DNA of 64,000 nt from positions 535,198-599,197 of the forward strand of contig OZ244928.1 in NCBI GenBank assembly GCA_965221985.1. The letters run 5' to 3'. Below, one piece after another: positions 22,278 through 41,688 of this stretch. Numbering within the stretch: position 1 is the stretch's first letter; each line of letters begins with the position of its first letter. Origin of the DNA: Gammaproteobacteria bacterium. GTDB taxonomy: Bacteria > Pseudomonadota > Gammaproteobacteria > Steroidobacterales > GCA-2729495. A program made the translations under genes and the position numbers. The notes under the pieces were generated by a model, which saw only the letters and a program-made list of their open reading frames with translations, searched no databases and was not told where the DNA came from.

Positions 22278-22285
22278 GACATTGT

Positions 22286-22930: not shown

Positions 22931-22987
22931 TATTATGAGTGCCTTCCGTATGCACCCAATTCTAGCCGCAATGCGTCTCTATCTCGC

Positions 22988-24667: not shown

Positions 24668-24736
24668 GCAATATCGCAATATCAAGCCCAAGAACTCTGG
24701 CCCCCTCAAATACGGCCTTTCGATATCGATTAAATA

Positions 24737-24782
24737 CTTGATATACCAATCTTTTTCGCTATAATTCTGTATGTATATACAG
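24737..24782 (+). promoter_or_regulatory. Sigma70 promoter with an overlapping LexA (SOS) box
   Basis: -35 TTGATA at 24737-24742, a 17-bp spacer, -10 TATAAT at 24760-24765, and CTGTatgtatatACAG at 24767-24782 (CTGT-N8-ACAG). It lies 10 bp upstream of the HNH gene ATG at 24793. Confidence 0.65.
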
Positions 24783-24792
24783 TAATTAGAGC

Positions 24793-26169: not shown

Positions 26170-26566
26170 ACTGTCCCTGCAATTAGTTTAGATCGATTTT
26201 CGGCGAACCCATCCAAGTATCGCCAATGCGGAGCCGAACAGCCAAAACGTTTCGTTTCTTAAGTCCCCTGCCATAAAAGCGTAAAAACACTATTTATGGG
26301 TCATCAGGAGCCAAACCGATCTGCCAGAACATCTTGTTTATTCTTAGTTTAAGCACAATCGATATTATGAATATGCTACACATGCACCAAACTCAAAACA
26401 AATTGTTCTAAGCTGACGGCTAAGAAGAATGCTGCCTACTTCTAATTTGGAATGTGAGGGGGGCAGTTTACAAATATGGCAATAGGGAAATCGGCGAAAG
26501 CACGGCGCGGAGTCTCCTATCGCTTTTTAAATTTCCAAACTGTCCCGGCAATTCCGAGGTTCAGCT

Positions 26567-26989
26567 ATGAAAAACTTAATCATCCTGGCGACGATACAGA
26601 TCTCCTGGGCGCAAGCACGGCTATTCGACATGGATCGTACATTTACGGTGGCCAAGCTTCGCAATTATGCGAAAACAACTGCGGACTATGAACAAGCCGG
26701 ATTGGCGCTTGCCGAGGCGGCCAAGCGCGCGACCATCATTATAACCACACATTGGCTACAGGCTACACAACTACCCGGCGATTCTGTCCTAGCCTGTGGC
26801 CGCCACGTCAATGAGATGAACGCCTGGAGATGGATTAGATTTAAAGGTGAATTGCCAGACGAATCTGAAGTTGTGGCGGCTGTTACCGGCAAAACGCTCA
26901 ATGCGTTGCTGGGATGTTTGCAGGATGTGGAGGCGAACGATGAAGCATCATCTGAATCTACGGCAGGCGACGGTGGAAAAGACGAGTAG
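26567..26989 (+). CDS. Hypothetical protein
   Basis: A 140-aa ORF in an AT-rich region with no family motif. Confidence 0.3.
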   Translation: MKNLIILATIQISWAQARLFDMDRTFTVAKLRNYAKTTADYEQAGLALAEAAKRATIIITTHWLQATQLPGDSVLACGRHVNEMNAWRWIRFKGELPDESEVVAAVTGKTLNALLGCLQDVEANDEASSESTAGDGGKDE

Positions 26990-27076
26990 GCTAGCCGGCG
27001 CCGAGGATCTCTTGGTGCCAATAGTGTTGACTATGTGTCCGGAACAAGCTGTAAACCATGTGACCGGGTAGCACCT

Positions 27077-27130
27077 TTGAAAAGATGGTGGCCAGGGGCG
27101 GAATCGAACCACCGACACGCGGATTTTCAG
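27077..27130. repeat. attL: 54-bp direct repeat identical to the 3' end of tRNA-Phe plus 8 bp (copy of 41605-41658)
   Basis: GAAAAGATGGTGGCCAGGGGCGGAATCGAACCACCGACACGCGGATTTTCAGT is identical at both loci. Confidence 0.75.
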
Positions 27131-27132
27131 TT

Positions 27133-27699: not shown

Positions 27700-28031
27700 T
27701 CATTCAGACTCTGTTCACATTTTCGGAACGTTTGTTCACTTTAGCGGTTGACAGATCGCATTCTGTGCGTATACTCGCGCCCACTATGAATTACTTCATC
27801 CAACAACTCGGTTTATCAACCGCCGCCAAACGGCGCTGGCAGTTGTATGCCAACGTCGATGGGGACGGTGGCGCGCGCCTGTCCGGTATGAACGTCATAC
27901 CGGCGCATATCGCGTTTGACCGTTGTGATTCGCTCGCCACGAATAGTGGGGAACCGATGACTTAGCCTTCCTAAGAACATTTTCTCGGAAGGCTCGAATA
28001 TCGAACCTTCCAGGAAAGCTCCAACAAGAGA

Positions 28032-28187: not shown

Positions 28188-28264
<77 letters not shown>

Positions 28265-28270
28265 GTTTTC

Positions 28271-28355
28271 GGAGAGGTTTTCACTGGCAAGAAGCCCTGG
28301 CTGTAAACCAGGCGCCTAATGGGCTTTGTGGGTTCGACTCCTACCCTCTCCACCA
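28271..28355 (+). tRNA. tRNA-Tyr(GUA), long variable arm, CCA encoded
   Basis: Acceptor GGAGAGG/CCTCTCC. Anticodon stem CCTGG/CCAGG with loop CTGTAAA. T-loop GGTTCGACTCC. Confidence 0.8.
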
Positions 28356-28358
28356 AAT

Positions 28359-28434
28359 GGATCGGTAGCTCAATCGGTAGAGCGGTCGGCTGAAGACCGA
28401 CGCGTCGGTGGTTCAATTCCATCCCGGTCCACCA
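28359..28434 (+). tRNA. tRNA-Phe(GAA), CCA encoded (island copy, distinct from the attachment-site tRNA-Phe)
   Basis: Anticodon stem GTCGG/CCGAC with loop CTGAAGA. T-loop GGTTCAATTCC. Confidence 0.85.
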
Positions 28435-28435
28435 A

Positions 28436-28510
28436 TGGCATGTAGCTCAATGGTAGAGCGTCCGCCTGTTAAGCGGAAAGGTGTAGGTTCGAGTCCTACC
28501 GTGCCAGCCA
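28436..28510 (+). tRNA. tRNA-Asn(GUU), CCA encoded
   Basis: Anticodon stem TCCGC/GCGGA with loop CTGTTAA. T-loop GGTTCGAGTCC. Confidence 0.85.
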
Positions 28511-28516
28511 GATTCT

Positions 28517-28592
28517 GGGGGATTAGTTCAGTTGGTTGAACGTCGTCTTTGCAAGGCGAATGAGCGCGGTTCGAATCCGCGATCCTCCACCA
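28517..28592 (+). tRNA. tRNA-Ala(UGC), CCA encoded
   Basis: Acceptor GGGGGAT/ATCCTCC. Anticodon loop TTTGCAA. T-loop GGTTCGAATCC. Confidence 0.75.
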
Positions 28593-29065
28593 ATCCACGA
28601 CTATCGGCTTCGGCCGAGGTTGTGACTAGCGGCCTGGCGCTGCTAACCGTCGGCAACGGCGGGAAAGGAACGCTCCCATGGCGTTTCGCCGAAACTTAGG
28701 TTTCGGTCATTCCAGGCAAGTTCGGCCTCCCTTAGTTCTCGGCATTGCCGGGGATAGCGGCCAAGCGATGCGCGGAAGTAGTGCGACTGACGCACCGACT
28801 AACGTCGGGAATGCGGGTCCGCGAAAGAACACGTGGTGGTGCTACCCGCTACACCAACATCGTCAACCGTGAGAGGTAACGAATAGTGCAGGTAAGTGCG
28901 AGCTTTGCAGGCGAGTGCGACTGCGCAGAGGGCGAGGGTTCTGGCGTGCAGCCAGCGTCCTCGTCATCGGTCAAGTAACCGGCAGGTGAACGACATTCGG
29001 CGTGTTGTATTTCGTTGCCCAAAAGGCAACGAAGCGACTGAGGCGCGCACGTCGCAATGGGACTA

Positions 29066-29140
29066 GCGTTTTTAGCTCAGTGGTAGAGCTATCGACTTCT
29101 ACTCGATTGGTCGCGGGTTCGAATCCCGCATTACGCACCA
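29066..29140 (+). tRNA. tRNA-Arg(UCU)-like with two acceptor-stem mismatches. Possibly a pseudo or non-canonical tRNA
   Basis: D GCTCAGTGGTAGAGC. Anticodon stem ATCGA/TCGAT with loop CTTCTAC. T-arm GCGGGTTCGAATCCCGC. Acceptor GCGTTTT/ATTACGC with U-U at 5-68 and 6-67. Confidence 0.5.
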
Positions 29141-29492
29141 AACAGTAAACGCAAAGACGCGCCCCGGTACGTGTCGAAAGTGGCTTAAGGCCGAAGCCTT
29201 CGGGTAATTCGGCGGTTTGAACAGCCGCAAGCTGTTCTGACCTTGGCAGTGCGCCGCACGGTTGGGTAGCCCCCATTCAGAGCCTCGCAAGGCTCACGGT
29301 AAGCAAATTGCTGACTAGATGCGTACGACGAGTGAATCGCCTCACTCTGAAAAAGGCAGTCATGACTAACTACCGTCATGCCGGCGCAAGCCGGGTGGCG
29401 GTGGACACACGGGCAACTGTCGCCGTGCAGGCGGCAGGTACTCCCGCAAAAGGTTGGTCGCAAACGGCCTAGTCTCAGCCGTTTTCTATTTC

Positions 29493-29567
29493 GCTGCGGT
29501 AGCTCAATGGCAGAGCATCGGATTGTCGATCCGAAAGATGTCGGTTCAAGTCCGATTCGCAGCGCCA
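29493..29567 (+). tRNA. tRNA-Asp(GUC), CCA encoded
   Basis: Anticodon stem TCGGA/TCCGA with loop TTGTCGA. T-loop GGTTCAAGTCC. Confidence 0.85.
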
Positions 29568-29575
29568 GTTTCCAT

Positions 29576-29651
29576 GATCCGGTGGGCGAATGGTTAAGCC
29601 ACGAGGCCTTCAACCTCGTAATTGCAGGTTCGAATCCTGTCCGGATTACCA
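29576..29651 (+). tRNA. tRNA-Glu(UUC) with C33 in place of the universal U33, CCA encoded
   Basis: Anticodon stem CGAGG/CCTCG with loop CCTTCAA. T-loop GGTTCGAATCC. Acceptor GATCCGG/CCGGATT. Confidence 0.65.
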
Positions 29652-29726
29652 CACATGCGAGTTTGTACTACTCGCAATTCGATCGTCGCGAAGCGACTCA
29701 TTCTTAAACAGGCTCGAGGAGGACAC

Positions 29727-29954
29727 ATGAACATCAAAGATATTGTGAAAGACAACACCGTTCGATTTGTTCGGTATCGACAAGGAATCGCCTACTACGG
29801 CGTGAATGTACCAGCAGGCGGCGCGTATGTTTTCCCTGTTCCGCTCGAGGACATCGGTGACGCAACCCTTGAGCTCGAAGACAGAGCAATCATGTTTATG
29901 CGCTACATCAAACGCGCAATCAGCGACGGGTCATTTGTTCCTCTGGCGTCATGA
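29727..29954 (+). CDS. Small hypothetical protein (75 aa) embedded in the tRNA array
   Basis: Strong RBS GAGGAGGA 6 nt upstream of ATG 29727 (MNIKDIVKDNTVRFVRYRQGIAYYGVNVPAGGAY..). The track ORF 29622-29954 is a spurious N-terminal extension that runs through tRNA-Glu. Confidence 0.45.
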   Translation: MNIKDIVKDNTVRFVRYRQGIAYYGVNVPAGGAYVFPVPLEDIGDATLELEDRAIMFMRYIKRAISDGSFVPLAS

Positions 29955-29960
29955 CTTTGT

Positions 29961-30036
29961 AGACCGATAGCTCAGTGAGTAGAGCGCGCGACTGATATTC
30001 GCGAGGTCGGCTGTGCAACTCAGCCTCGGTCTACCA
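29961..30036 (+). tRNA. tRNA-Ile(GAU) with an atypical T-loop (TGCAACT), CCA encoded
   Basis: D GCTCAGTGAGTAGAGC. Anticodon stem CGCGA/TCGCG with loop CTGATAT. T-stem GGCTG/CAGCC. Confidence 0.6.
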
Positions 30037-30042
30037 CTTTTT

Positions 30043-30120
30043 CTGGAAGTAGCTCAGCCTGGTCAGAGTCCTCGGCTTGGAACCGAGATGCCGCTGGTTC
30101 GAATCCAGCCTTCCAGACCA
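30043..30120 (+). tRNA. tRNA-Pro(UGG), CCA encoded
   Basis: Acceptor CTGGAAG/CTTCCAG. Anticodon stem CTCGG/CCGAG with loop CTTGGAA. T-loop GGTTCGAATCC. Confidence 0.8.
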
Positions 30121-30128
30121 AATTCAAA

Positions 30129-30216
30129 GGAGACTCGCAAGGTCGGCGTGCTTATCCGGTTTGAACCCGGTGATGTCCTTACGGACGTGGGGGTTCGATC
30201 CCCTCAGTCTCCGCCA
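30129..30216 (+). tRNA. tRNA-Ser(UGA), long variable arm, CCA encoded
   Basis: Acceptor GGAGACT/AGTCTCC. Anticodon loop TTTGAAC. Variable-arm hairpin GTCCttacGGAC. T-loop GGTTCGATCCC. Confidence 0.7.
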
Positions 30217-30225
30217 ACAAACATT

Positions 30226-30301
30226 GGTGAATGTAGCTTAACGGCAAAGCCCCAGACCGTGAATCTGGTTGATATCGGTTCGAGTCCGTTCATTCACCCC
30301 A
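30226..30301 (+). tRNA. tRNA-His(GUG) with encoded G-1 and C33, CCA encoded
   Basis: An extra 5' G before acceptor GTGAATG/CATTCAC. Anticodon stem CCAGA/TCTGG with loop CCGTGAA. T-loop GGTTCGAGTCC. Confidence 0.7.
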
Positions 30302-30308
30302 ATCAACT

Positions 30309-30398
30309 GGAGAAGTGGCCGAGTGGCTTAAGGCACTCGTTTGCTAAACGAGAGGGGCGTGCCGTCCCACCCAGGTTCGAATCCTGGCTTCTCCGCCA
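30309..30398 (+). tRNA. tRNA-Ser(GCU), long variable arm, CCA encoded
   Basis: Acceptor GGAGAAG/CTTCTCC. Anticodon stem CTCGT/ACGAG with loop TTGCTAA. T-loop GGTTCGAATCC. Confidence 0.8.
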
Positions 30399-30401
30399 CA
30401 T

Positions 30402-30478
30402 CCGCCTGTAGCTCAGTTGGATAGAGCGGCTGGCTTCGAACCAGCAGGACGGGGGTTTGAGTCCCTCCAGGCGGTCCA
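30402..30478 (+). tRNA. tRNA-Arg(UCG), T-loop TTTGAGT, CCA encoded
   Basis: Acceptor CCGCCTG/CAGGCGG. D GCTCAGTTGGATAGAGC. Anticodon stem GCTGG/CCAGC with loop CTTCGAA. Confidence 0.7.
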
Positions 30479-30480
30479 CT

Positions 30481-30554
30481 CCGCTCTTGGCATAGTGGCT
30501 GTGCACCTGGCTTTTAACCAGGTGACGGGAGTTCGATTCTCTCAGGGCGGACCA
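30481..30554 (+). tRNA. tRNA-Lys(UUU), CCA encoded
   Basis: Anticodon stem CCTGG/CCAGG with loop CTTTTAA. T-loop GAGTTCGATTCTC. Confidence 0.75.
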
Positions 30555-30561
30555 ATTCAAT

Positions 30562-30637
30562 GCGGGCATAGCTCAATCGGTAGAGCACGACGGCGCCACC
30601 GTCGGGGTTGTGGATTCAATCTCCACTGCCCGCACCA
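30562..30637 (+). tRNA. tRNA-Gly(GCC) with C33, CCA encoded
   Basis: Acceptor GCGGGCA/TGCCCGC. D GCTCAATCGGTAGAGC. Anticodon stem CGACG/CGTCG with loop GCGCCAC. Confidence 0.65.
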
Positions 30638-30638
30638 A

Positions 30639-30709
30639 TGAGAGGGAGGCGGTCTCACGCGGGGCTCATAACCCCGCTTTCGCCGGTTCGAATCCGGCCC
30701 TCTCGACCA
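30639..30709 (+). tRNA. tRNA-Met-like (CAU) with a shortened D-arm. Possibly a non-canonical or pseudo-tRNA
   Basis: Acceptor TGAGAGG/CCTCTCG. Anticodon stem CGGGG/CCCCG with loop CTCATAA. T-arm GCCGGTTCGAATCCGGC with ACCA. Only about 11 nt lie between position 9 and the anticodon stem. Confidence 0.45.
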
Positions 30710-30712
30710 TGT

Positions 30713-30789
30713 TGTCCGATAGCTCAGTTGGTTAGAGCGCCGCTCTTACAAAGCGGAGGTCGTCGGTTCGAATCCGTCTCGGACTACCA
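30713..30789 (+). tRNA. tRNA-Val(UAC), CCA encoded, with a 1-72 mismatch
   Basis: D GCTCAGTTGGTTAGAGC. Anticodon stem CCGCT/AGCGG with loop CTTACAA. T-loop GGTTCGAATCC. Confidence 0.7.
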
Positions 30790-30898
30790 GGGTTGGGCAC
30801 GCGCGCGGTGTTCAGCGGTTCGGGTTTTGATCCCGTCTGGCACACTCACGCTCCCATCGCACGGTGTGTACCGAGCGTACCGTTAGCACTCAACCACC

Positions 30899-30975
30899 AC
30901 GGGAAATTAGCTCAGTGGGTAGAGCATCAGACCTGTAATCTGACTGTCGCAAGTTCGACTCTTGCATTTCCGCCA
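30899..30975 (+). tRNA. tRNA-Thr(UGU)-like with C33, a G1-G72 mismatch and no discriminator. Questionable functionality
   Basis: D GCTCAGTGGGTAGAGC. Anticodon stem TCAGA/TCTGA with loop CCTGTAA. T-arm GCAAGTTCGACTCTTGC. Confidence 0.4.
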
Positions 30976-31502
30976 ATGCCCTGTCACGGCATCAAGGCAA
31001 GGCTTCGGCCTGCGGTTCGAATCCGCTCCCGGGCGAGGATATCGCCCCACCCGTGTCCGTTGTCGGCAAAGACGTTCGACGATCCGCAAGGACGTCGAAC
31101 CTCCGAGCAGCACGACTGTTGCCGATCAGTGATCCGCCGCGTCGATCCTGCATGTCGCCCACGTCGCATCCGCCCGATACTCGCGAACGCTTTGGTGATC
31201 GCGGGCGAAAGCCGACGCCCCGTGCACGATGTGCCCGATTGGCCGGCGCCATCGATCTGCGGCACTCCTGTGACAGCGGACACACATATTCATACGATCG
31301 GGCCACAAGTGGCCCGGGCTCTCTAAACCATAGACGACAAAGGAGGTGATCCGAAGTGGCTGGTCTCAGTCGACTGGCAGAAGTAGAACGGCGCATTCAG
31401 GAGCAAAAGTCCAGCCACCAAGCGGCCCGACCTTTGCGCACTTTGCGTCCAAACCAACGACCGTCATTTGACGGAAACAACAACGAAGAAGGAGAACGCA
31501 CA

Positions 31503-32645
31503 ATGTGGTTCTACAACAAGTTCATCGTGCGCAAGCACGAACGCGGTCTCCTGTTTAAGGATGGAGACTTCATCAAGTTCGTGGCACCGGGAACATATCG
31601 TTACTTCAGCCTGCGTCGCCGCTACGCGGTTGAGCGCTTCGACCTGTCGGTCGCTGCGTTCGAACACCGCCTGGCCGACTATCTGGTTGAGGCCGAGCGC
31701 GCTGAGGTCGATCGCCTGTTTCACGTCGTTGAAACCAACGCCGATGAAGTAGCGCTGGTCTACCTCAACGAGCGTGCCTCGGCCGTGCTCGCACCGGCGG
31801 AGCGCAAGCTCTACTGGAAAGGTGTGGTCAAGGTTCGTGTTGAGCGCTTCGACCTCAATGAGGGCATTGCGCTTGATGCGCGCCTGACCAAGCGCCTTGT
31901 AAACGGCCGCGATGCGAAGGTACTCGCGGTTGTCGACAAGGCGGTCTACGCACGCATCGTACCCGACGGTCACGTAGGTCTGCTGTACGTGGATGGTGAA
32001 CTCACCGATACCCTGGCAGCCGGCCTGCATGCCTTTTGGAACGTTGCCCACGCCGTTGGCGTGGAGCTTGTGGACCTGCGTGTCAAAGCACTGGAAGTTC
32101 AAGGTCAGGAAATCCTGACCAAGGACAAAGTGGCACTGCGTATCAACGTAACCGCTACTTACCAGTACATTGACGCCGCCAAAGCCGTTCGCGCGGTCAA
32201 GGATCCGCTGGATCAACTATACAAAGAGATCCAGTTTGGTCTACGCGCGGCTGTGGGTACCCGCAAGCTGGATGCGCTGCTCGAGGATAAGACTGCGATC
32301 GACCGCGACATTGCGGATCACCTTGGCAAGCGTTTCGCTGAGATCGGCCTCAGCGTGATCAGCGTAGGCGTGAAAGACATCATCTTGCCCGGCGATATGA
32401 AAGACCTGCTGGGCAAGGTTGTTGAAGCCGAAAAAGCGGCACAAGCGAATGTTATTCGCCGCCGCGAAGAGACAAACGCAACTCGCTCGCTGCTGAACAC
32501 CGCGAAAGTGATGGAAAGCAACAACGTAGCTCTGCGTCTCAAAGAGCTGGAGACTCTCGAGAAGATCACCGAAAACGTAGGCGATCTATCTGTCGTGGGT
32601 GGTCTCGACGCTCTGCTGAATGGACTGGTAAACATCAAGTCTTGA
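31503..32645 (+). CDS. SPFH/band-7 (stomatin-prohibitin-flotillin-HflKC, slipin-like) domain protein
   Basis: KDKVALRINVTATYQYIDAAKAVRAV..DPLDQLYKEIQFGLRAAVGTRKLDALLEDK..IDRDI..FAEIGLSVISVGVKDIILPGDMKDLLGKVVEAEKAAQANVIRRREETNA. An alternative GTG start at 31356 is preceded by a perfect anti-16S SD (AAGGAGGTGATC). Confidence 0.8.
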   Translation: MWFYNKFIVRKHERGLLFKDGDFIKFVAPGTYRYFSLRRRYAVERFDLSVAAFEHRLADYLVEAERAEVDRLFHVVETNADEVALVYLNERASAVLAPAERKLYWKGVVKVRVERFDLNEGIALDARLTKRLVNGRDAKVLAVVDKAVYARIVPDGHVGLLYVDGELTDTLAAGLHAFWNVAHAVGVELVDLRVKALEVQGQEILTKDKVALRINVTATYQYIDAAKAVRAVKDPLDQLYKEIQFGLRAAVGTRKLDALLEDKTAIDRDIADHLGKRFAEIGLSVISVGVKDIILPGDMKDLLGKVVEAEKAAQANVIRRREETNATRSLLNTAKVMESNNVALRLKELETLEKITENVGDLSVVGGLDALLNGLVNIKS

Positions 32646-32652
32646 TTCAGCA

Positions 32653-32690
32653 CCGGGAGGGTGTGCAACGCGCCCTCCCAACTTTTTCTA
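32653..32690 (+). terminator. Rho-independent terminator after the SPFH gene
   Basis: GGGAGGGtgtgcaacgcgCCCTCCC followed by AACTTTTTCT. Confidence 0.6.
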
Positions 32691-32691
32691 C

Positions 32692-32768
32692 ACGGCTGTA
32701 GCTCAGCGGATTAGAGCGCGACTCTGCGAAGGTCGAGGTCACAGGTTCGAATCCTGTCAGCTGTACCA
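32692..32768 (+). tRNA. tRNA-Arg(GCG), an unusual anticodon for bacteria, CCA encoded
   Basis: D GCTCAGCGGATTAGAGC. Anticodon stem CGACT/GGTCG with loop CTGCGAA. T-loop GGTTCGAATCC. Confidence 0.6.
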
Positions 32769-32776
32769 ATTACTAT

Positions 32777-32850
32777 TCGGCGCTCGTCCAATGGCAGGAT
32801 GCGAGACTTTGAATCTCGAGATCGTGGTTCGAGTCCACGGCGCCGAGCCA
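32777..32850 (+). tRNA. tRNA-Gln(UUG), CCA encoded
   Basis: Acceptor TCGGCGC/GCGCCGA. Anticodon stem CGAGA/TCTCG with loop CTTTGAA. T-loop GGTTCGAGTCC. Confidence 0.8.
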
Positions 32851-32857
32851 GGACAAA

Positions 32858-32931
32858 TGGTCAGTCGTCTAATGGTAGGACTGCGGCTTCCAAACCCGCT
32901 AATCGGCGTTCGAATCGTCGCTGGCCAGCCA
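32858..32931 (+). tRNA. tRNA-Trp(CCA), CCA encoded
   Basis: Acceptor TGGTCAG/CTGGCCA. Anticodon loop TTCCAAA. T-loop GCGTTCGAATCGTC. Confidence 0.7.
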
Positions 32932-32934
32932 CTT

Positions 32935-33008
32935 CATGCCGTGGCCGAACGGTTAGGCGCGAGGTTGCAACCCTCGTCATCTCGGTTCAAGTCCGAGCGG
33001 CATGTCCA
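32935..33008 (+). tRNA. tRNA-Cys(GCA), CCA encoded
   Basis: Acceptor CATGCCG/CGGCATG. Anticodon stem CGAGG/CCTCG with loop TTGCAAC. T-loop GGTTCAAGTCC. Confidence 0.75.
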
Positions 33009-33012
33009 ACTC

Positions 33013-33091
33013 TCCCCAGTAGCTCAGCCAGGTGTAGAGCAACCGTCTTATATGCGGTTGGTCGCTGGTTCAATTCCAGCCTGGGGGACCA
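33013..33091 (+). tRNA. tRNA-Ile(UAU)? A rare AUA-decoding anticodon. CCA encoded
   Basis: D GCTCAGCCAGGTGTAGAGC. Anticodon stem ACCGT/GCGGT with loop CTTATAT. T-loop GGTTCAATTCC. Confidence 0.55.
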
Positions 33092-33092
33092 A

Positions 33093-33170
33093 ACCCTCGT
33101 AGCTCAATGGATCCAGAGCACCGAGCTTCTACCTCGGGTGTTGCAGGTTCGAGTCCTGCCGAGGGTGCCA
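33093..33170 (+). tRNA. tRNA-Arg(UCU), CCA encoded
   Basis: Acceptor ACCCTCG/CGAGGGT. Anticodon stem CCGAG/CTCGG with loop CTTCTAC. T-loop GGTTCGAGTCC. Confidence 0.8.
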
Positions 33171-33178
33171 ACAACTAA

Positions 33179-33257
33179 GGCCGTCTGACGGGAACTAGGC
33201 ATACCTACCTGTCTTAGAAACAGGTGTTTCTCGGTTCGACTCCGAGGGCGGCTACCA
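33179..33257 (+). tRNA. Non-canonical tRNA-Leu(UAG)-like: short variable arm and an atypical D-arm. CCA encoded
   Basis: Anticodon stem CCTGT/ACAGG with loop CTTAGAA. T-arm CTCGGTTCGACTCCGAG. D-region TGACGGGAACTAGGCATACCT has no clear 4-bp D-stem. Confidence 0.5.
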
Positions 33258-33262
33258 ACATT

Positions 33263-33340
33263 GCGGATCTGAAGGGAACAGGCATACCTCGATGGCTTAA
33301 AACCATTGGCATCCCGGTTCGATTCCGGGGGTCCGCACCA
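33263..33340 (+). tRNA. Non-canonical tRNA-Leu(UAA)-like, CCA encoded
   Basis: Acceptor GCGGATC/GGTCCGC. Anticodon stem GATGG/CCATT with loop CTTAAAA. T-arm CCCGGTTCGATTCCGGG. D-region TGAAGGGAACAGGCATACCT. Confidence 0.5.
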
Positions 33341-33341
33341 C

Positions 33342-33419
33342 GCGCAGGTGACGGGAACGGCATACCTGGGTAGCTCAAAACTACTTGCTTCCGCGTTCGA
33401 ATCGCGGGCTGCGCACCAA
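33342..33419 (+). tRNA. Non-canonical tRNA-Leu(CAA)-like, CCA encoded
   Basis: Anticodon stem GGTAG/CTACT with loop CTCAAAA. T-arm CCGCGTTCGAATCGCGG. D-region TGACGGGAACGGCATACCT. Confidence 0.5.
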
Positions 33420-33423
33420 CTAC

Positions 33424-33502
33424 GCGGATCTGAAGGGAATTGGTTATACCTCGGTGGCTCAGACCCACCGGCATCCCGGTTCGACTCCGGGGGTCCGTAC
33501 CA
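33424..33502 (+). tRNA. Non-canonical tRNA-Leu(CAG)-like, CCA encoded
   Basis: Anticodon stem GGTGG/CCACC with loop CTCAGAC. T-arm CCCGGTTCGACTCCGGG. D-region TGAAGGGAATTGGTTATACCT. Confidence 0.5.
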
Positions 33503-33506: not shown

Positions 33507-34115
33507 ATGTCTACACAATTCGCATTGTCACTACGAGAAATGACGATGACCGAAAGGATTCTAAAACTGGATGTAGGCGGACGACCGATTGCGTGGATTA
33601 CGCGCGAGGACGGTGCCCTACTGTACTGCCGCGAACAGGTAGCGTGGGAGGCTGGAGTTGAAGAGATCATTCTTCGTGGCGGCTACTCACGGCGCACTGG
33701 TCTTCGGTCAGTCCTGCGTGTGAATTCTATCGTCGCAACAACCGCGGTAGACAAGGGCGCGGACGACTGGTCCGGTACTCCGGCGCTAACCAATCCGCGC
33801 CTTTTCCGTCGAGACGACTACATGTGTCTCTACTGCGGTGAGGCTCTGCCGCCAAGGTTACTCACCCGCGATCACGTGATTCCTCTGTCAGCAGGCGGTC
33901 AGGACACCTGGGAAAACGTTGTGTCGGCATGCCGGCCCTGCAATCACAGGAAAGACAACCACTCGCTGGAAGTCATTGGAATGCGACTCCTGGCTGTGCC
34001 CTATGCACCGAACCGTGCCGAGGGCCTGATCCTGGAAAACCGCCGCATTCTGACGGACCAGATGGAGTTCCTGCGATCACGCGTCGGCTCAGGCAGCCGG
34101 CTGCGTGTACCATAA
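33507..34115 (+). CDS. HNH endonuclease
   Basis: CLYCGEALPPRLLTRDHVIPLSAGGQDTWENVVSACRPCNHRKDNH. The track ORF 33306-34115 is an N-terminal extension that reads through the upstream tRNAs. The start was chosen at the first ATG after the array. Confidence 0.75.
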   Translation: MSTQFALSLREMTMTERILKLDVGGRPIAWITREDGALLYCREQVAWEAGVEEIILRGGYSRRTGLRSVLRVNSIVATTAVDKGADDWSGTPALTNPRLFRRDDYMCLYCGEALPPRLLTRDHVIPLSAGGQDTWENVVSACRPCNHRKDNHSLEVIGMRLLAVPYAPNRAEGLILENRRILTDQMEFLRSRVGSGSRLRVP

Positions 34116-35543
34116 ATGGACAAGGACAAGACAATGTCATTTTTGCAAGAAGTACAGAAAGTATCGGATGCACACTACGTGCTACCAAAGATCGGTGACA
34201 TGCGCACTGAGGTGCACGCGTACCTGTCCGAAGCTCTGTTTGCGCAAACCGATGAAGCGCTGTGGCGTCAGGCCGCACAGGCGGCCGCCTACCCAGGCAT
34301 GATTGGCCTTTACTTGATGCCTGACACACACCTGGGCTACGGCATCCCGGTCGGCGGCGTTGCCGTGACCGAAGACGTCATCATCCAGGCCGGCAGCGGT
34401 TACGATATTTCATGCGGTGTCGTGTACCTGAAGGTGCCAAACCTGACGGCTGCAGATGTCGCCGACTGGGACAAGCGTCGCCGCTGGATCTATGAAGTCG
34501 AGCTGCGCATCGCGACTGGTATCGGTAGCGATCGTCCGAAACACATGCCTCGCATTGCGGACACCAAGATCGAGGACATCTTTCGCTATGGTGCGCAGGC
34601 CATCGGCGTGCATGCGGACGTTTGCGAACGTCAGTACATCGACGTGGACGAACAAGTGCTGGATACCGATCGTATCGAGCGTGCTCGCAACAAGGCGGGG
34701 CCACAGATTGGTTCGGTCGGTGGCGGCAACCACTTCGTGGAAATGCAGGTCGACGTCAACGACGGTTCGGTCTGGGTGATGATTCACTGTGGCAGTCGTG
34801 GTTACGGCTGGCAAACGGCGAACCATTACTTCTATGAAGGTGCGGCGCTGCGCGGCCTAGCGAAGAATCGTCGCGAGGAGTCGTGGCTCCGCGCAGACGA
34901 GCTCTTGGGCCGCGAATACTGGGCCCACCACAACTCGGCAGCGAACTATGCCGTGGCGAATCGTCACATCATCGTTCGTGGTGTGCAAAAAGCACTTGAG
35001 AACGTCTTCAATGCAACCGGTGAGGTCTTCTACGAGATCTCGCACAACCTGGTGCAGGAAGAGACGCTTGTGCTGCCGGACGGCACTACCAAGAAGGGAT
35101 TCGTCCACCGAAAGGGCGCGACCCGCGCATTTCCGGCGGGACACCCTGACCTGGTGGGCACAAAGTGGGAAGACACGGGTCATCCATGCCTTGTGCCAGG
35201 CTCAATGCTAGACGGTGCGGCCATCCTTTACCCGTTGAAGGGTGCGTACCAGTCAGGTTGCTCTGTGAACCATGGTTCCGGACGTGTGATGGCGCGTGGC
35301 CAGGCCAAGCGTGAGCTGGCCGAGCTGCATGACGATATCGACGCCGAAATGCGCCACATCAAGCGTACGCTGGGTGGCGTAGAGGTAGAAGGCATCGTCG
35401 GCAACACACGGCGCACGCCGCTGGATGAGTGCGGCCACGTCTACAAGGATTTGGACGAGGTACTGCGCGTGCTGGAGACAGAAGGCATTGCTCGCGTAGC
35501 AAACCGAATGTACCCAGTGGCCAATATTAAGGGCACCGATTGA
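34116..35543 (+). CDS. rtcB: RtcB-family RNA 3'-phosphate ligase (tRNA-splicing/repair ligase)
   Basis: GGGNHFVEMQV, HCGSRGYG and VNHGSGRVMARG, with a length of 475 aa. Confidence 0.85.
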   Translation: MDKDKTMSFLQEVQKVSDAHYVLPKIGDMRTEVHAYLSEALFAQTDEALWRQAAQAAAYPGMIGLYLMPDTHLGYGIPVGGVAVTEDVIIQAGSGYDISCGVVYLKVPNLTAADVADWDKRRRWIYEVELRIATGIGSDRPKHMPRIADTKIEDIFRYGAQAIGVHADVCERQYIDVDEQVLDTDRIERARNKAGPQIGSVGGGNHFVEMQVDVNDGSVWVMIHCGSRGYGWQTANHYFYEGAALRGLAKNRREESWLRADELLGREYWAHHNSAANYAVANRHIIVRGVQKALENVFNATGEVFYEISHNLVQEETLVLPDGTTKKGFVHRKGATRAFPAGHPDLVGTKWEDTGHPCLVPGSMLDGAAILYPLKGAYQSGCSVNHGSGRVMARGQAKRELAELHDDIDAEMRHIKRTLGGVEVEGIVGNTRRTPLDECGHVYKDLDEVLRVLETEGIARVANRMYPVANIKGTD

Positions 35544-35570: not shown

Positions 35571-36497
35571 ATGCAGCTGGTTGAAGCCAAGGAGATCATA
35601 GAGTGTCTGCCGAGGAGTAAAACGCGGTTTTACTACTTCAAGGACCGGTATGCGTTGTTGTTGCTGAGTCTAGTTACCCGCAATCACGCATCGAAAAAGG
35701 ATCTCCGCACGACGCGCTTTGCCAAACTTCTCGAAAAGGATGTTGTCCGGGAAGCGCTTAGTCAGTCTCGTGGAGAAGAGCTGACTGCCGAAGTCTTCGA
35801 CACTGTATGGCCGGTACGTTATGAGTGCTACTTCCTCACGCTAGCGATTTGGGGATCAAAGAACAGAGATTCCTGGTATCAAACCTCACGCCGAGGTTTC
35901 AATCTCGTTCTCCAACTCAACTTCTCGTCAGAACACGACGAACCGTATAAGAGGCTTGTGGATCCAAATGACGCTCGCCCGTTTGAGTATGGTGGGCATC
36001 CTGTCGCGGACGGTCGTTTCCACACGCTTGCCTGGGCGCGACTGGACATCGATCTTGCGAACGACGAGGCACTCATTGAGGAAGTACAAAACGACTGGAT
36101 AAGGGAGGCACTATGGGCACGGCGAGTTGCCGTACGAGAACAAGGTCCGATTTACTATTGGGGGTCAAAGGTTGAGAACGACCGGGTAATCCGCTACGTC
36201 GATAACGTGCTACGGCAACACGAGGGCATCTGGCACGAAGCGACGCTCTCTGCGGCAATCTGGTTTTTGCGTTGCGAGATAGGCGTGAGGAACATCTACT
36301 ACCACACCTATGAATCCGGCGCGCGCTTAAAGTCGATTCAGTACAGCATGCCGCCGCGGTCAGTTTATTCCAGGCTTCCGCGGCGATTCTGTTTCAAAGA
36401 GACGGACGAAGTGCCTAGATTCTTGGCTATGAATAGTAGATCTCGAGTTTGGCAGCAGCAGCTGGATCAGGCACGTTTCTTTGAGATCAGGCTGTAG
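35571..36497 (+). CDS. Hypothetical protein, the last gene of the tRNA-array/RtcB module
   Basis: A 308-aa ORF with no recognised motif. Same strand and tightly spaced after rtcB. Confidence 0.5.
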   Translation: MQLVEAKEIIECLPRSKTRFYYFKDRYALLLLSLVTRNHASKKDLRTTRFAKLLEKDVVREALSQSRGEELTAEVFDTVWPVRYECYFLTLAIWGSKNRDSWYQTSRRGFNLVLQLNFSSEHDEPYKRLVDPNDARPFEYGGHPVADGRFHTLAWARLDIDLANDEALIEEVQNDWIREALWARRVAVREQGPIYYWGSKVENDRVIRYVDNVLRQHEGIWHEATLSAAIWFLRCEIGVRNIYYHTYESGARLKSIQYSMPPRSVYSRLPRRFCFKETDEVPRFLAMNSRSRVWQQQLDQARFFEIRL

Positions 36498-37100: not shown

Positions 37101-37613
37101 TTAGTCGGCATCCAAGCGCAGTAAGCCCAGCTTGACCAGGCGAATAGTCATCGCCTGTTCGCTGACTTCAAAGCGCAACGCCAGTAACGCGATGTCCAAG
37201 TCCGACAGCGAGTCGTTGGGCACGGCACTGCGCACCATGTCTTCCGGCATGAGTAGCTCAGCGGCAAAACGATTCGCTTGGATTTCCTGAATATCAGTGC
37301 CTGCTCCGGCAACGGCACCACGCTGAAACGCTTGATCGACGAACAGCTGGTCGTCACCTTCTTTGCAATGCAGGAAATAGTGACCGCACTCGTGGGCCGC
37401 CGTAAAACGTTGTCGGTTCGGATGGTGCGTGCTGTTGATCGCGATCGTGGCTTGGCCGTCCTCGATCAGCAGCAATCCGGAATCGGCATCGTCCATGTCT
37501 TCGAAAGCGAGATTGATGTCTCGCTCTTCAATAATGCGAAACACGTTTACGGCAGGCACGGTGACTTTATGTGCACGCAATAGCTCCGAAACTTCGGCTA
37601 AGTCACTCATCAT
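37101..37613 (-). CDS. ImmA/IrrE family metallo-endopeptidase
   Basis: The HEXXH motif in TAAHECGHYFLH. Confidence 0.75.
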   Translation of the reverse strand: MMSDLAEVSELLRAHKVTVPAVNVFRIIEERDINLAFEDMDDADSGLLLIEDGQATIAINSTHHPNRQRFTAAHECGHYFLHCKEGDDQLFVDQAFQRGAVAGAGTDIQEIQANRFAAELLMPEDMVRSAVPNDSLSDLDIALLALRFEVSEQAMTIRLVKLGLLRLDAD

Positions 37614-40237: not shown

Positions 40238-40603
40238 ATGGGAAATAAACCGAGCATCATTCCGCCGCGGCTCATACGGTTCCGCGACGCGCCCAGCTAT
40301 CTGGGCATGGACCGGAATCGGTTCAACAAAGAGATCCGGCCCTACCTAACCGAGGTGAGGGTCGGTGTACAAGGCAGGGCATTTGACCGGCTTGAACTGG
40401 ACGACATGGCAGAGCAGTATATTGCTTGCAACGGACGTCCCGGTCGACTCAAAGGAGAACGACTATGGGACGAAAACGAACGCCCGGCCTCGTCAAGAAA
40501 GGCGAAGTCTGGCACATCGACAAACGTATCGAAGGGCAACGGGTTTGCGTCAGTTGTGGCACAACTCGACTTGAAGAAGCGGAGCGATTCCTCTCAAAAC
40601 TAA
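40238..40603 (+). CDS. Putative AlpA/excisionase-like DNA-binding protein
   Basis: RLIRFRDAPSYLGMDRNRFNKEIRPYLTEVRVG resembles AlpA-family HTH proteins. Immediately upstream of the integrase, and overlapping it. Confidence 0.35.
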   Translation: MGNKPSIIPPRLIRFRDAPSYLGMDRNRFNKEIRPYLTEVRVGVQGRAFDRLELDDMAEQYIACNGRPGRLKGERLWDENERPASSRKAKSGTSTNVSKGNGFASVVAQLDLKKRSDSSQN

Positions 40604-41547
40604 TCGAGGATACTCGCAATGCAAAGATCTATGGAGTAAGGCCGGAACGGAGCTTTGAAGAGGCCGCAATCAAATTCGTCGAAGAGAATCAGCACAAGCG
40701 ATCACTCAGAAGCGACATTGGCCTCCTCAAGCAACTGATGCCGTGGATTGGTACGCTGCCTTTGCAGCGCATCCATCTTGGCACCTTACAACCCTACATC
40801 GATCACAAACGAAAGGAGGGAAGAGCACCTGGGACGATCAATCACGGATTGAAGGTGGTTCGACGCATCCTGAATCTCGCCGAAGCCGAGTGGATGGATG
40901 AACACGGCCTAACCTGGCTCGAGCGAGCACCACGGATCAAGTTGCTGCCCGATACCAACAAGCGGCAACCATATCCGCTGAGTTGGGATGAACAGCAAAG
41001 GTTGTTCTCAGCATTACCGTCGCATCTGGCCGAAATGGCGTTGTTCACCGTCAACACCGGATGCCGCGATAGCGAAGTTTGCAACCTGCGTTGGGATTGG
41101 GAAGTGAAGGTCCCCGAACTCGACACGTGCGTATTCATCGTGCCGGGATCATTCGTCAAGAACGGTGATGAGCGACTGGTAGTCTTGAACGACATCGCGA
41201 GCTCCGTCGTGGAATCGCGTCGCGGTAAGCACGCGACACACGTTTTCGCGTACAAGGACAAACCGATCGCCCGGATGCTGAACAGCTCCTGGTGCCGGGT
41301 TCGCAAAGTCGTCGAGCTACCGAAAGTTCGTGTTCACGACTTGAAGCACACCTTCGGCCGACGTCTTCGGGCCGCCGGCGTGAGCTTCGAGGACCGGCAG
41401 GACTTACTCGGCCATCGCTCCGGACGAATGACCACACACTACTCGGCCGCTGAGCTGACAAAACTCATCGAAGCTGCGAACCGTGTGTGTGAACGAGAAG
41501 GTAACAAGCTCGAGCTCGTGGTATTGCGACGGCTCAGCGTAAGCTGA
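40465..41547 (+). CDS. int: Tyrosine-type site-specific integrase
   Basis: The C-terminal catalytic region VHDLKHTFGRRLRAAGVSFEDRQDLLGHRSGRMTTHYSAAEL (R..H..R..Y). SD AAGGAG before ATG 40465. The track ORF starts at TTG 40426. Confidence 0.85.
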   Translation: MGRKRTPGLVKKGEVWHIDKRIEGQRVCVSCGTTRLEEAERFLSKLIEDTRNAKIYGVRPERSFEEAAIKFVEENQHKRSLRSDIGLLKQLMPWIGTLPLQRIHLGTLQPYIDHKRKEGRAPGTINHGLKVVRRILNLAEAEWMDEHGLTWLERAPRIKLLPDTNKRQPYPLSWDEQQRLFSALPSHLAEMALFTVNTGCRDSEVCNLRWDWEVKVPELDTCVFIVPGSFVKNGDERLVVLNDIASSVVESRRGKHATHVFAYKDKPIARMLNSSWCRVRKVVELPKVRVHDLKHTFGRRLRAAGVSFEDRQDLLGHRSGRMTTHYSAAELTKLIEAANRVCEREGNKLELVVLRRLSVS

Positions 41548-41604
41548 CTCGCGCAAAATTCACGAAAAGGGTTGAGAGAAAAACTTGGATACGACGCAAG
41601 TCGT

Positions 41605-41688
<84 letters not shown>

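Follow-up and report, generated by a model that had tools for sequence, protein, structure and literature searches.

The window analysed here is a 64,000-nucleotide stretch of bacterial DNA in which 29 tRNA genes lie on a horizontally acquired island. A reading of the window as a phage genome was rejected: it is bacterial chromosome, with host genes on both sides of the array. The island (approximately 14.5 kb) is of the integrase type, is inserted in the host tRNA-Phe gene, and carries a GOLLD RNA together with genes for an HNH endonuclease and RtcB. Its main features are as follows:

27077..27131, no strand: attL, a 55-bp exact direct repeat at the left island end, identical to 41604-41658
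27748..27775, plus strand: predicted near-consensus sigma-70-like promoter (TTGACA-16-TATACT, 11/12 matches; consensus match only)
28188..28592, plus strand: first tRNA block, Thr(UGU), Tyr(GUA), Phe(GAA), Asn(GUU), Ala(UGC)
28995..29481, plus strand: conserved domain of GOLLD RNA (RF02032, 154.9 bits, GA 150, E = 2.5e-43)
29066..29140, plus strand: tRNA-like gene with anticodon UCU, inside the GOLLD linker region
31356..32645, plus strand: SPFH/Band-7 protein gene, interrupting the array and kept in related islands
32655-32679: strong terminator-like hairpin 3' of the SPFH/Band-7 gene
32692..33170, plus strand: second tRNA block, Arg(GCG), Gln, Trp, Cys, Ile(UAU), Arg(UCU)
33179..33502, plus strand: four type I tRNALeu genes, UAG (33179-33257), UAA (33263-33340), CAA (33342-33418), CAG (33424-33502)
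33546..34115, plus strand: HNH endonuclease gene (HNH_5, E = 4.6e-14), beside the array in relatives too
34116..35543, plus strand: RtcB RNA ligase gene (PF01139, E = 4.9e-87), kept in relatives
37101..37613, minus strand: CapP/IrrE-like M78 peptidase gene (capP, E = 8.5e-33)
40426..41547, plus strand: tyrosine integrase gene (Phage_integrase, E = 3.1e-16), adjoining attR
41604..41658, no strand: attR, the second 55-bp copy, within the intact host tRNA-Phe(GAA) gene (41613-41688, minus strand)

Within the attL repeat, the 3'-terminal 46 nt of tRNA-Phe are duplicated, the predicted promoter lies approximately 410 nt upstream of the first tRNA of the array, and the M78 peptidase is a possible stress-responsive regulator. 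Many Gamma- and Betaproteobacteria MAGs contain syntenic arrays accompanied by HNH and RtcB (74-97% identity), and arrays of this kind are found in very different phyla. Array tRNAs were identified using ARAGORN calls and Rfam covariance models; the relatives are labelled L122, L124, L150, L157, L174, L177, and L188. The array covers all 20 amino acids; a Gly(UCC) gene that is present in relatives is absent here. In the first block, Tyr(GUA) keeps its long arm, Phe(GAA) has G37, and Ala(UGC) carries G3:U70. The second block holds Arg(GCG) and Ile(UAU), which an earlier note on this DNA had rightly called rare anticodons. That note had also seen acceptor mismatches in the Arg(UCU) gene at 29066: there are two (U.U at 5-68 and 6-67), and the gene is the GOLLD linker tRNA, whose anticodon differs in every island examined (CAG in L150, with both U.U mismatches kept; UAG in L124, with one acceptor mismatch). 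The 400-nt non-coding stretch upstream of the conserved domain (28593-28994) may be the variable 5' part of GOLLD.

Individual array genes discussed below are:

29493..29567, plus strand: tRNA-Asp(GUC) with G37, loop UUGUCGA
29576..29651, plus strand: tRNA-Glu(UUC) with C33, loop CCUUCAA
29961..30036, plus strand: tRNA-Ile(GAU), T-loop UGCAACU (G55), D-loop AGUGAGUA with AG replacing G18G19
30043..30120, plus strand: tRNA-Pro(UGG) with A37 (bacteria usually have G37)
30226..30301, plus strand: tRNA-His(GUG) with encoded G-1, C73, and C33, loop CCGUGAA
30402..30478, plus strand: tRNA-Arg(UCG), T-loop UUUGAGU (U56)
30562..30637, plus strand: tRNA-Gly(GCC) with G32 and C33, loop GCGCCAC
30639..30709, plus strand: Met-like tRNA(CAU) with truncated D-arm (RF00005, 36.4 bits, GA 29)
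30713..30789, plus strand: tRNA-Val(UAC) with mismatches U1.U72 and, in the T stem, U50.U64
30901..30974, plus strand: 'Thr(UGU)' gene, formerly CAU, with C33 and G1.G72, loop CCUGUAA

At position 33, where published papers describe U as nearly universal, ARAGORN places C in Glu, His, Gly, and the Thr-like gene at 30901, and U in the remaining 24 tRNAs that it calls; the earlier note had listed the same four genes, and neither ARAGORN nor Rfam assigns them the standard U33. C33 is more frequent in the array (4/28) than among control viral-contig tRNAs (14/592; Fisher p = 0.007), and is enriched ahead of G34 (12.7% versus 3-4% ahead of other bases, p = 6e-13). His orthologs have C33 in 15 of 18 cases, with position 32 varying among C, A, and U, and the Gly(GCC) loop is common to L157, L122, and L150, more distant orthologs having U33. 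Among the 93-100% identical Glu orthologs, eight have U and five, like the window copy, have C, a split that could be neutral drift. C33 is recurrent and isoacceptor-specific, as are the swaps at nucleotide 37 and the A18.G55 elbow of Ile described below; the Asn, Asp, and Tyr array tRNAs keep U33. In yeast tRNALeu(GAG), C33 is reported to be natural and nearly neutral.

Swaps of nucleotide 37 are systematic, giving G37 in Phe and Asp and A37 in Pro and Leu-CUN. Asp genes have G37 in 29 of 42 array members versus A37 in 12 of 13 control viral genes, and Pro genes have A37 in 17 of 27 versus G37 in 19 of 21 controls. The island tRNAPhe and the host tRNA-Phe, the sole host isoacceptor in the window and hence the one host comparison made there, have different nucleotides at this position.

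The unusual T-loops that the earlier note gave for Ile(GAU) and Arg(UCG) are present as described. In the Ile elbow, G55 covaries with A18 replacing G18 (A18.G55); the paired T-loop and D-loop changes are also found in L157, L122, L150, L188, and L177, and loss of the D-loop GG accompanies G55 in 57 of 74 tRNAs versus 80 of 2294 with U55 (p = 8e-61). The Arg(UCG) T-loop is shared with L150 only, other orthologs having UUCRAGU. The Met-like tRNA(CAU), missed by ARAGORN and found by RF00005 at 30639-30706, does have the truncated D-arm attributed to it: a 3-bp GAG/CUC stem and a 5-nt loop, with 14 nt separating the acceptor and anticodon stems. It also has U1.G72 and an anticodon stem whose lowest three pairs are G-C, and it is kept in at least 12 related islands.

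The four Leu genes are 77-79 nt long, are without a long arm, and have a common D region, UGA-M-GGGAAY(N)GGCAUACCU, so that ARAGORN and Rfam agree with the earlier note on both the short variable loop and the peculiar D region. The 5-nt variable region counted there in standard numbering corresponds, under a strict fold, to a 4-nt loop (G-N-N-U) plus the paired 26:44; because 26:44 pairs, the anticodon stem has 6 bp. Three of the four genes fall below the threshold of the general tRNA covariance model, with which UAG scores 38.8 bits, CAA scores 14.4 bits, and CAG gives no match; UAA is best matched by tRNA-Sec (30.8 bits, below that model's GA of 47).

These genes belong to a widespread family of arm-less (type I) tRNALeu found in phages and array islands. 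Across its 140 non-redundant members, 18 of 18 stem pairs covary (92-100% paired, 3-6 pair types each), as does 26:44, and the G and U of the variable loop G-N-N-U are invariant. A73 occurs in 138/140; nucleotide 35 is A in 140/140, followed by A or G at nucleotide 36, so that the arm-less body carries no anticodons other than those of Leu. Because the search pattern was the D-arm motif itself, the conservation of that motif is to some degree circular; the pattern did not include the UGA beside it in viral matches, A73, the anticodons, or the variable loop. The D region aligns with the D arms of type II tRNALeu at the same loci, and the family retains the bacterial tRNALeu D arm (3-bp stem, G13, A14, A15, G18G19, A20a) along with U48 (the A15:U48 pair) and A73; it thus retains the E. 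coli LeuRS determinants that a review of tRNA identity lists. Matches occur in 101 phage records, including Acinetobacter and Aeromonas phages, and among the GenBank matches listed, similar genes are annotated as tRNA-Leu in Streptomyces phages and Salmonella phage Arash. In the T5-like phage OSYSP, both tRNALeu genes (2/2) are type I, as are 15/50 in the viral tRNALeu control sample. An OSYSP tRNALeu with a swapped anticodon has been reported to insert Leu in E. coli. The type I tRNALeu(CAA) of S. coelicolor, however, is not charged by E. coli LeuRS, and arm loss is therefore not automatically tolerated. Bacterial LeuRS reads the retained D-arm elements, U48, and A73, and neither the long arm nor the anticodon; the host enzyme would charge all four genes, which would jointly read the six Leu codons.

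A minority of deviations are of a different character. The Val acceptor mismatch of the earlier note, U1.U72, is confined to the window, L157, and L122, most other orthologs having U1-A72, and Val U50.U64 is found in the window copy only. His likewise has U50.U64 in the window, and Leu(CAA) has G7.G66, a mismatch lacking in the L157 copy. For the Thr-like gene, previously placed at 30899, the acceptor mismatch and C33 stand, but the start is at 30901 and the orthologs carry CAU (loop CCCAUAA in L157 and L122, 97% identical; CUCAUAA in L174); it is a tRNA(CAU) gene with a changed anticodon. The two Val mismatches, Leu(CAA) G7.G66, and the CAU-to-UGU change are recent lesions. Those of the window copy (Val U50.U64, Leu(CAA) G7.G66, the lost CAU), with the missing Gly(UCC), may therefore reflect relaxed selection in this host.

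The earlier note had left the choice between degenerate pseudo-tRNAs and deliberately altered tRNAs. Degeneration fits the minority just described, together with the GOLLD linker tRNA, and alteration fits most features: other genomes carry syntenic arrays, at 72-97% identity, that retain the arm-less Leu design, His C33, the truncated Met-like gene, and the G55 T-loop of Ile, with compensatory changes in the stems, and synthetase identity marks are intact (His G-1 and C73, Ala G3:U70, Leu A73). We therefore favor, at a probability of roughly 0.7 and from sequence comparison, the reading that the array genes are genuine tRNAs from lineages of mobile elements, that most of their oddities are inherited family traits compatible with function, and that together they resemble a functional reserve kit for translation. 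Such a kit would have little need of host enzymes that modify the anticodon loop and would be unlike host tRNAs at positions that tRNA-targeting enzymes read, with RtcB at hand to repair cleaved tRNAs; the recent lesions and the non-decoding linker tRNA would be its exceptions. That the array is instead a silent passenger with accumulated damage seems to us improbable. The window mismatches (in Val, Leu(CAA), and His), the lost CAU anticodon, and the missing Gly(UCC) do point that way, as does the often cryptic state of long arrays, 3/26 genes of the Anabaena array being pseudogenes. Decay would nevertheless leave unexplained why the main oddities are common to many diverged relatives, why identity marks survive, and why the arm-less body carries Leu anticodons in 140/140 cases, and a related type I tRNALeu functions in E. 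coli. Equally hard to credit is a role outside translation, with the variants serving tRNA-cleaving enzymes as decoys, or a GOLLD nanocage as cargo or partners. A sponge role has been proposed for the Anabaena array tRNAs, GOLLD forms a cage inside which linked tRNAs may be held, and its linker tRNA has no fixed anticodon; decoding is favored by the strict link of arm-less body to Leu anticodons, by the retained identity marks, and by an array that covers all 20 amino acids.

Within the favored reading of a spare decoding kit, escape from tRNA-targeting nucleases, the idea raised in the earlier note, might drive the changes in the anticodon loop (positions 32, 33, 37, and 38), and possibly also the T-loop changes and the loss of the Leu arm; this is a plausible sub-hypothesis rather than an alternative, and we hold it tentatively. 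Published comparisons find phage and host tRNAs to differ at nuclease sites, and phage tRNAs are reported to neutralise PARIS and retron defence systems. A repair ligase, RtcB, is a conserved neighbour, isoacceptor-specific C33 with a hypervariable His position 32 is as expected in an arms race, and position 37 distinguishes the island tRNAPhe from that of the host. On the other hand, no nuclease was identified within the island, Asn, Asp, and Tyr retain U33, and the variants could equally reflect drift or a lack of dependence on modification enzymes. Colicin E5, moreover, accepts either pyrimidine at position 33. In published ASL assays, U33C gives no protection from gamma-toxin. A rather doubtful further proposal is that the variants would free the set from host-specific modification enzymes, leaving it functional in any host after transfer. 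Ile(UAU) does not need TilS, Arg(GCG) does not need TadA, TrmD is bypassed through A37 in Pro and Leu-CUN and MiaA through G37 in Phe, and Tgt reads U33-G34-U35, such that His C33 should block it; the spread of arrays over very different phyla is also consistent with this proposal. Against it, U33 is retained in the remaining queuosine tRNAs (Asn, Asp, Tyr), and tRNAPro without m1G37 normally leads to frameshifting.

Long tRNA arrays are described in the literature as usually silent; 23/26 tRNAs of the Anabaena array are aminoacylated in vivo, and short-arm tRNALeu have previously been noted in mycobacterial arrays. The island described here is of a known kind, a horizontally transferred long tRNA array whose neighbours are the same as in long arrays published earlier.

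The tRNA array lies on an island of approximately 14.5 kb bounded by an exact 55-bp direct repeat, one copy of which falls inside the intact host tRNA-Phe gene, beside a tyrosine integrase. The features of the island that matter here are:

27077-27131: left copy of the 55-bp direct repeat (attL)
27748-27775: promoter-like near-consensus site upstream of the array
28188-33502 (+): tRNA array
28995-29481: GOLLD RNA, inside the array
29066-29140 (+): Arg(UCU) tRNA gene
30639-30706 (+): Met-like CAU tRNA gene
33179-33502 (+): four consecutive Leu-anticodon tRNA genes
33546-34115: HNH endonuclease gene
34116-35543: RtcB gene
35571-36497 (+): 308-aa ORF directly downstream of RtcB
37101-37613 (-): CapP/IrrE-like peptidase gene
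37647-38381 (-): truncated IS481 transposase gene
41604-41658: right copy of the repeat, in tRNA-Phe
Within the island: SPFH gene

ARAGORN folds 28 tRNA genes in the array, all on the + strand, and Rfam adds the Met-like gene, whose 36.4 bits exceed the gathering score of 29. We define an L-array as at least 20 tRNA genes at no fewer than two per kb, closely spaced on one strand; here, 29 such genes are present at about 5 per kb. Horizontal transfer, a further mark of L-arrays, is evident from the att repeat, the integrase, and syntenic arrays in other lineages, and the neighboring HNH and RtcB genes are the kind of endonuclease and RNA-repair genes expected there. As regards the remaining mark (silence in normal conditions, induction by translational stress, and tRNAs charged in vivo), the one thing found in the window is the promoter-like site. 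The closest relative is a Woeseiaceae metagenome-assembled genome (locus L157).

A phage origin of the window was ruled out, as megablast of the array against phage genomes returned no match and the flanking genes are bacterial (TonB-dependent receptors, AsmA, a GGDEF/EAL regulator, and MutY-like and EgtB/EgtD-like genes); tblastn likewise gave no phage match for a large ORF, which proved to be the host AsmA. Searches of the island with PADLOC, NCBIfam and Pfam for a tRNA-cleaving toxin returned none, yielding only the generic HNH, the CapP-like peptidase and the IS481 fragment. The peptidase gene adjoins the truncated transposase gene, and may be one member of a damage-responsive regulator pair whose partner has been disrupted. 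The 308-aa ORF has no match in Pfam, NCBIfam or PADLOC, and BLAST matches in relatives stop at about 35560, just before it. To the left of attL (21700-27076) lie a DUF222-HNH gene (24793-26169), a CoiA-like gene (23798-24667) and several small ORFs; the same site may hold a second mobile element, older than this island.

An earlier note, made by eye from the sequence, had described many of the array tRNAs as non-canonical, and had offered degenerate pseudo-tRNAs or deliberately altered tRNAs as explanations. One such case, four Leu-anticodon genes sharing a peculiar D region and lacking the long variable arm, is borne out by ARAGORN folds of 77-79 nt. Covariance-model scoring treats these genes poorly: with the general tRNA model Leu(UAG) scores 38.8 bits, Leu(CAA) 14.4 bits and Leu(CAG) has no match, and the best match of Leu(UAA) is to tRNA-Sec at 30.8 bits, under the tRNA-Sec threshold. 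A first scan of viral contigs for the D motif (pattern GGGAAYNGGCATACCT) gave many matches, of which about half were chance occurrences in coding DNA and had to be removed by reference to tRNA context; the genome scan used a longer pattern. The remaining viral matches are all of one gene type. Its acceptor stem has 7 bp and its anticodon stem 6 bp, the D region reads UGA-M-GGGAAYNGGCAUACCU (an invariance that partly reflects the way members were collected), the anticodon is one for Leu, the variable loop has 4 nt, and a T arm and A73 follow. The stricter scan, using one genome per species, identified 69 loci, of which almost all are tRNA arrays, mostly in Gamma- and Betaproteobacteria and also in Meiothermus/Calidithermus, Actinomycetota, Terriglobia and Nitrospiraceae.

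Across 140 non-redundant arm-less members, each of the 18 stem pairs is paired in 92-100% of sequences with three to six pair types, the 26:44 pair covaries, the variable loop reads G-N-N-U, and A73 is present in 138. Position 35 is A throughout and position 36 either A or G, so that only Leu anticodons occur on this body. Alignment of the D region to the D arm of ordinary long-arm tRNALeu at the same loci (UG-GYG-GAAUYGGYAGA-CRC) shows that A14, A15, G18G19 and A20a are retained. The window genes have a Leu anticodon and a variable region of at most 5 nt, which makes them type I, together with A73, U8:A14, A15:U48, G18G19 and A20a; one blemish, G7.G66 in Leu(CAA), is confined to the window copy. 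In E. coli, leucine identity is reported to reside in A14, A15, G18G19 and A20a plus U48 and A73, and neither the arm nor the anticodon matters (PMC9976931). We infer that LeuRS recognizes the arm-less tRNAs by the D-loop elements, U48 and A73 that they retain. Published experiments bear on leucylation in both directions: a tRNALeu of the T5-like phage OSYSP, both of whose tRNALeu genes are arm-less with a D-loop as in the window, inserts leucine at TCG in E. coli after an anticodon swap (PMC13596443), but E. coli LeuRS fails to charge the type I tRNALeu(CAA) of Streptomyces coelicolor (PMC6614811).

GenBank already labels similar genes tRNA-Leu, among the matches listed those of Streptomyces phages and Salmonella phage Arash, and one GenBank search returned matches in 101 phage records, including Acinetobacter and Aeromonas phages. 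In a control sample of viral tRNALeu genes chosen by an unrelated motif, 15/50 are arm-less. A recent identity review describes tRNALeu as long-armed everywhere except in animal mitochondria (PMC9976931); here the arm-less form accounts for about 30% of tRNALeu genes in the viral-contig control and predominates in this family of array islands, and covariance-model callers under-score it.

The second recurrent trait is C33 in place of the near-universal U33, which the folds place, as the note had it, in Glu (CCUUCAA), His (CCGUGAA), Gly (GCGCCAC) and a gene at 30901 (CCUGUAA). These are 4/28 array genes versus 14/592 control viral-contig tRNAs (p = 0.007). Among genome arrays the distribution depends on isoacceptor:

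C33 in tRNAs of genome arrays
His(GUG): 21/46
Ile(GAU): 12/39
Leu(GAG): 8/18
Gly(GCC): 7/27
Glu(UUC): 6/24
Leu(UAA), Leu(UAG), Leu(CAA), Trp, Phe, Asn, Lys(UUU), Pro(UGG): 0

Where G34 follows, C33 is four times as frequent as before other bases (12.7% versus 3-4%, p = 6e-13). Among tRNAHis orthologs from window-related islands, it is found in 15/18 while position 32 may be C, A or U, and retention beside a varying neighbor points to selection for C33 in tRNAHis. In these islands, tRNAGlu copies that are 93-100% identical have C in the window and five relatives and U in eight, and C33 in tRNAGly is limited to the four closest arrays. Arm-less Leu(GAG) genes carry the C33 loop UCGAGAR in seven viral contigs (L006, L016, L032, L049, L070, L094 and L096) and U33 in a few others (L048 and L098). 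An account of C33 as general avoidance of queuosine insertion was discarded, since U33 is retained in Asn, Asp and Tyr. In a published assay, anticodon stem-loop cleavage by gamma-toxin was unchanged by U33C, and yeast tRNALeu(GAG) carries C33 naturally, where it is nearly neutral (PMC13492127). Our search of the accessible literature, from which most subscription-journal papers are absent, found no description of position-33 variation in phage or array tRNAs.

On the other side of the anticodon, the purine at position 37 departs from the bacterial norm in particular isoacceptors, a swap that is systematic in array islands and that control viral tRNAs do not show:

Purine at position 37 in array islands and control viral tRNAs
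Pro(UGG): A37 in 17/27 from islands; G37 in 19/21 controls
Leu(NAG): A37 in 81/94 from islands
Phe: G37 in 16/21 from islands; A37 in 15/19 controls
Asp: G37 in 29/42 from islands; A37 in 12/13 controls

The window follows the island pattern (28359-28434, 29493-29567, 30043-30120 and 33179-33502; compared with loci L121-L189). For Phe, the sole host isoacceptor compared, the island loop is CUGAAGA versus CUGAAAA in the host. We take these swaps to be of a kind that would bypass m1G37 (TrmD) and i6A37 (MiaA).

The unusual T-loops reported for Ile(GAU), UGCAACU, and Arg(UCG), UUUGAGU, both reappear in the folds. The Ile loop, which places G at position 55, is retained in five related islands, always with AG replacing G18G19. 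Over all tRNAs collected (L001-L310), the D-loop GG is lost in 57/74 with G55 versus 80/2294 with U55 (p = 8e-61); this covarying combination is an alternative elbow rather than damage. [quoted passage not shown]

The folds also reproduce two U.U acceptor mismatches in Arg(UCU) at 29066, U1.U72 in Val and G1.G72 in the 30901 gene. In Val, U1.U72 is shared with L157 and L122 only, and a further U50.U64 occurs in the window copy only. For the 30901 gene, described earlier as Thr-like, 97% identical orthologs in L157 and L122 carry a CAU loop (CCCAUAA) and that of L174 reads CUCAUAA, so the window copy has changed its anticodon. With this CAU altered to UGU, the window set lacks an ordinary elongator-type CAU gene. 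The Met-like gene does have a truncated D-arm and, together with a GGG/CCC anticodon stem, is kept in at least 12 islands. Bacterial initiators have a mismatch at 1-72, an A11:U24 pair and an anticodon stem that ends at its bottom in three G-C pairs. Of these hallmarks the gene has the GGG/CCC; its 1-72 pair is a U.G wobble, and the D-arm has no clear 11:24 pair. Both rare anticodons listed in the note, Ile(UAU) and Arg(GCG), are present, and in these arrays they are common. A Gly(UCC) gene, located between Pro and Ser/His in relatives (L157, L174, L121, L148, L124 and L165), is absent from the window (30120-30129). Non-coding DNA at 30790-30900 and 30975-31060, 78-86% conserved in close relatives, contains the T-arm-like motifs GGTTCGGGTTTTGATCCCG and GCGGTTCGAATCCGC; these stretches may be tRNA remnants, and tRNA models gave no match in 30790-30900 or 30975-31030.

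The mismatched Arg gene lies in the GOLLD linker. GOLLD RNA (RF02032) scores 154.9 bits, above its gathering score of 150, and lies, as is typical for this RNA, in a tRNA island (prophages being the other usual location), with the tRNA at 29066-29140 aligning to its optional linker tRNA; a 400-nt non-coding stretch upstream, from 28593, may be the variable 5' half. GOLLD is above threshold in two other array loci as well, L150, whose linker tRNA retains both U.U mismatches with anticodon CAG, and L124, with anticodon UAG and one acceptor mismatch. Arg 29066 is a module of GOLLD and not a stable isoacceptor.

Taken as pseudogenes, these tRNAs should have lost pairing or identity marks and show no conservation. 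That description fits Val, the 30901 gene and the GOLLD linker tRNA in part, and does not fit the Leu set, His, Glu, Gly, Ile or the Met-like gene. What the data establish is the extent of the island, how the families are related, the covariation and the patterns tied to particular isoacceptors; beyond this, the variant tRNAs are probably charged and used in decoding. Why such variants would be selected is a matter for speculation: resistance to tRNA-targeting enzymes, independence of modification enzymes, or both, and RtcB as a conserved neighbor fits a setting of either repair or conflict, although the searches of the island recovered no tRNA nuclease. A more novel and less likely reading, at a probability of roughly 0.3, is that mobile-element tRNA sets share design rules that would render them independent of host modification enzymes and poor substrates for immune and toxin enzymes. 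Such rules would comprise tRNALeu stripped of its arm to the LeuRS determinants only, an A18.G55 elbow, C33 ahead of G34 (most of all in tRNAHis), and swapped purines at position 37 by which TrmD and MiaA are bypassed. Mammalian SLFN11 picks out long-arm (type II) tRNAs, and the enzymes evaded might include nucleases with that preference.

Recognizing these features as lineage traits keeps working tRNAs from being mislabeled as pseudogenes. They also offer contrast pairs (C33 versus U33 tRNAHis, armed versus arm-less tRNALeu, and G55/A18 versus U55/G18) that could settle whether mobile tRNA sets serve to resist tRNA-targeting defenses, to be portable between hosts, or both. The array type, its GOLLD/HNH/RtcB neighborhood, the linker tRNA, and the occurrence of tRNALeu with a short loop, both in arrays and in S. 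coelicolor, are already published; in the accessible literature we did not find the breadth and identity set of the arm-less family, the C33 pattern, the A18.G55 covariation or the purine-37 swaps.

Among known systems, the window resembles the L-arrays exemplified by the trn operon of Anabaena PCC 7120 (Santamaria-Gomez 2021, PMC8421152; Tran 2016, PMC4758250), in which dozens of tRNA genes on one strand together serve almost every amino acid, with horizontal transfer and with HNH and RtcB nearby. Cyanobacterial arrays likewise have HNH and RtcB neighbors, and 23/26 Anabaena array tRNAs are charged in vivo. The window differs in its Gammaproteobacteria-type chromosome, integrase island in tRNA-Phe, GOLLD RNA and SPFH gene, and the Anabaena paper does not mention U33/C33, tRNALeu or GOLLD. 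Mycobacterial arrays (Behra 2019, PMC6582537; Morgado 2020, cited in PMC12286853) share GOLLD within the array, a pseudo-tRNA within GOLLD, HNH nearby and the rare tRNAIle(UAU), but differ in phylum and sequences; U33 is not mentioned there, and we found in that work no account of purine-37 swaps, the A18.G55 elbow, the pattern of C33 or retained LeuRS determinants. The phage tRNAs of van den Berg 2023 (PMC10264068) are also a mobile-element set with anticodon loops unlike those of host isoacceptors, compared there with known VapC, PrrC and colicin sites; position 33 and the variable arm are not mentioned. Yeast tRNALeu(GAG) (PMC13492127) has C33 before G34, a combination also present in the arm-less Leu(GAG) genes of phages and arrays (UCGAGAG), but is eukaryotic and type II, with no known link to conflict systems. 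The chromosomal type I tRNALeu(CAA) of S. coelicolor (Fan 2019, PMC6614811) is likewise bacterial, has a variable loop of 5 nt, is found alongside type II tRNALeu in a cell with one LeuRS, and is leucylated in vitro; unlike the window genes it is housekeeping, the authors' knock-out having failed, and it requires a specialized leucine-specific domain of LeuRS. The tRNALeu of OSYSP (MF402939.1) differs from the window genes in its AUG/CAU D stem and in having no extra nucleotide after G9, but shares A73, the D-loop GAAUUGGCAUA, a length of 77 nt and the absence of a long arm. In recoded E. coli, where it served as tRNALeu(CGA), it inserts leucine whatever its anticodon (PMC13596443). Arm-less, anticodon-blind Leu tRNAs are already in use in genetic-code engineering.
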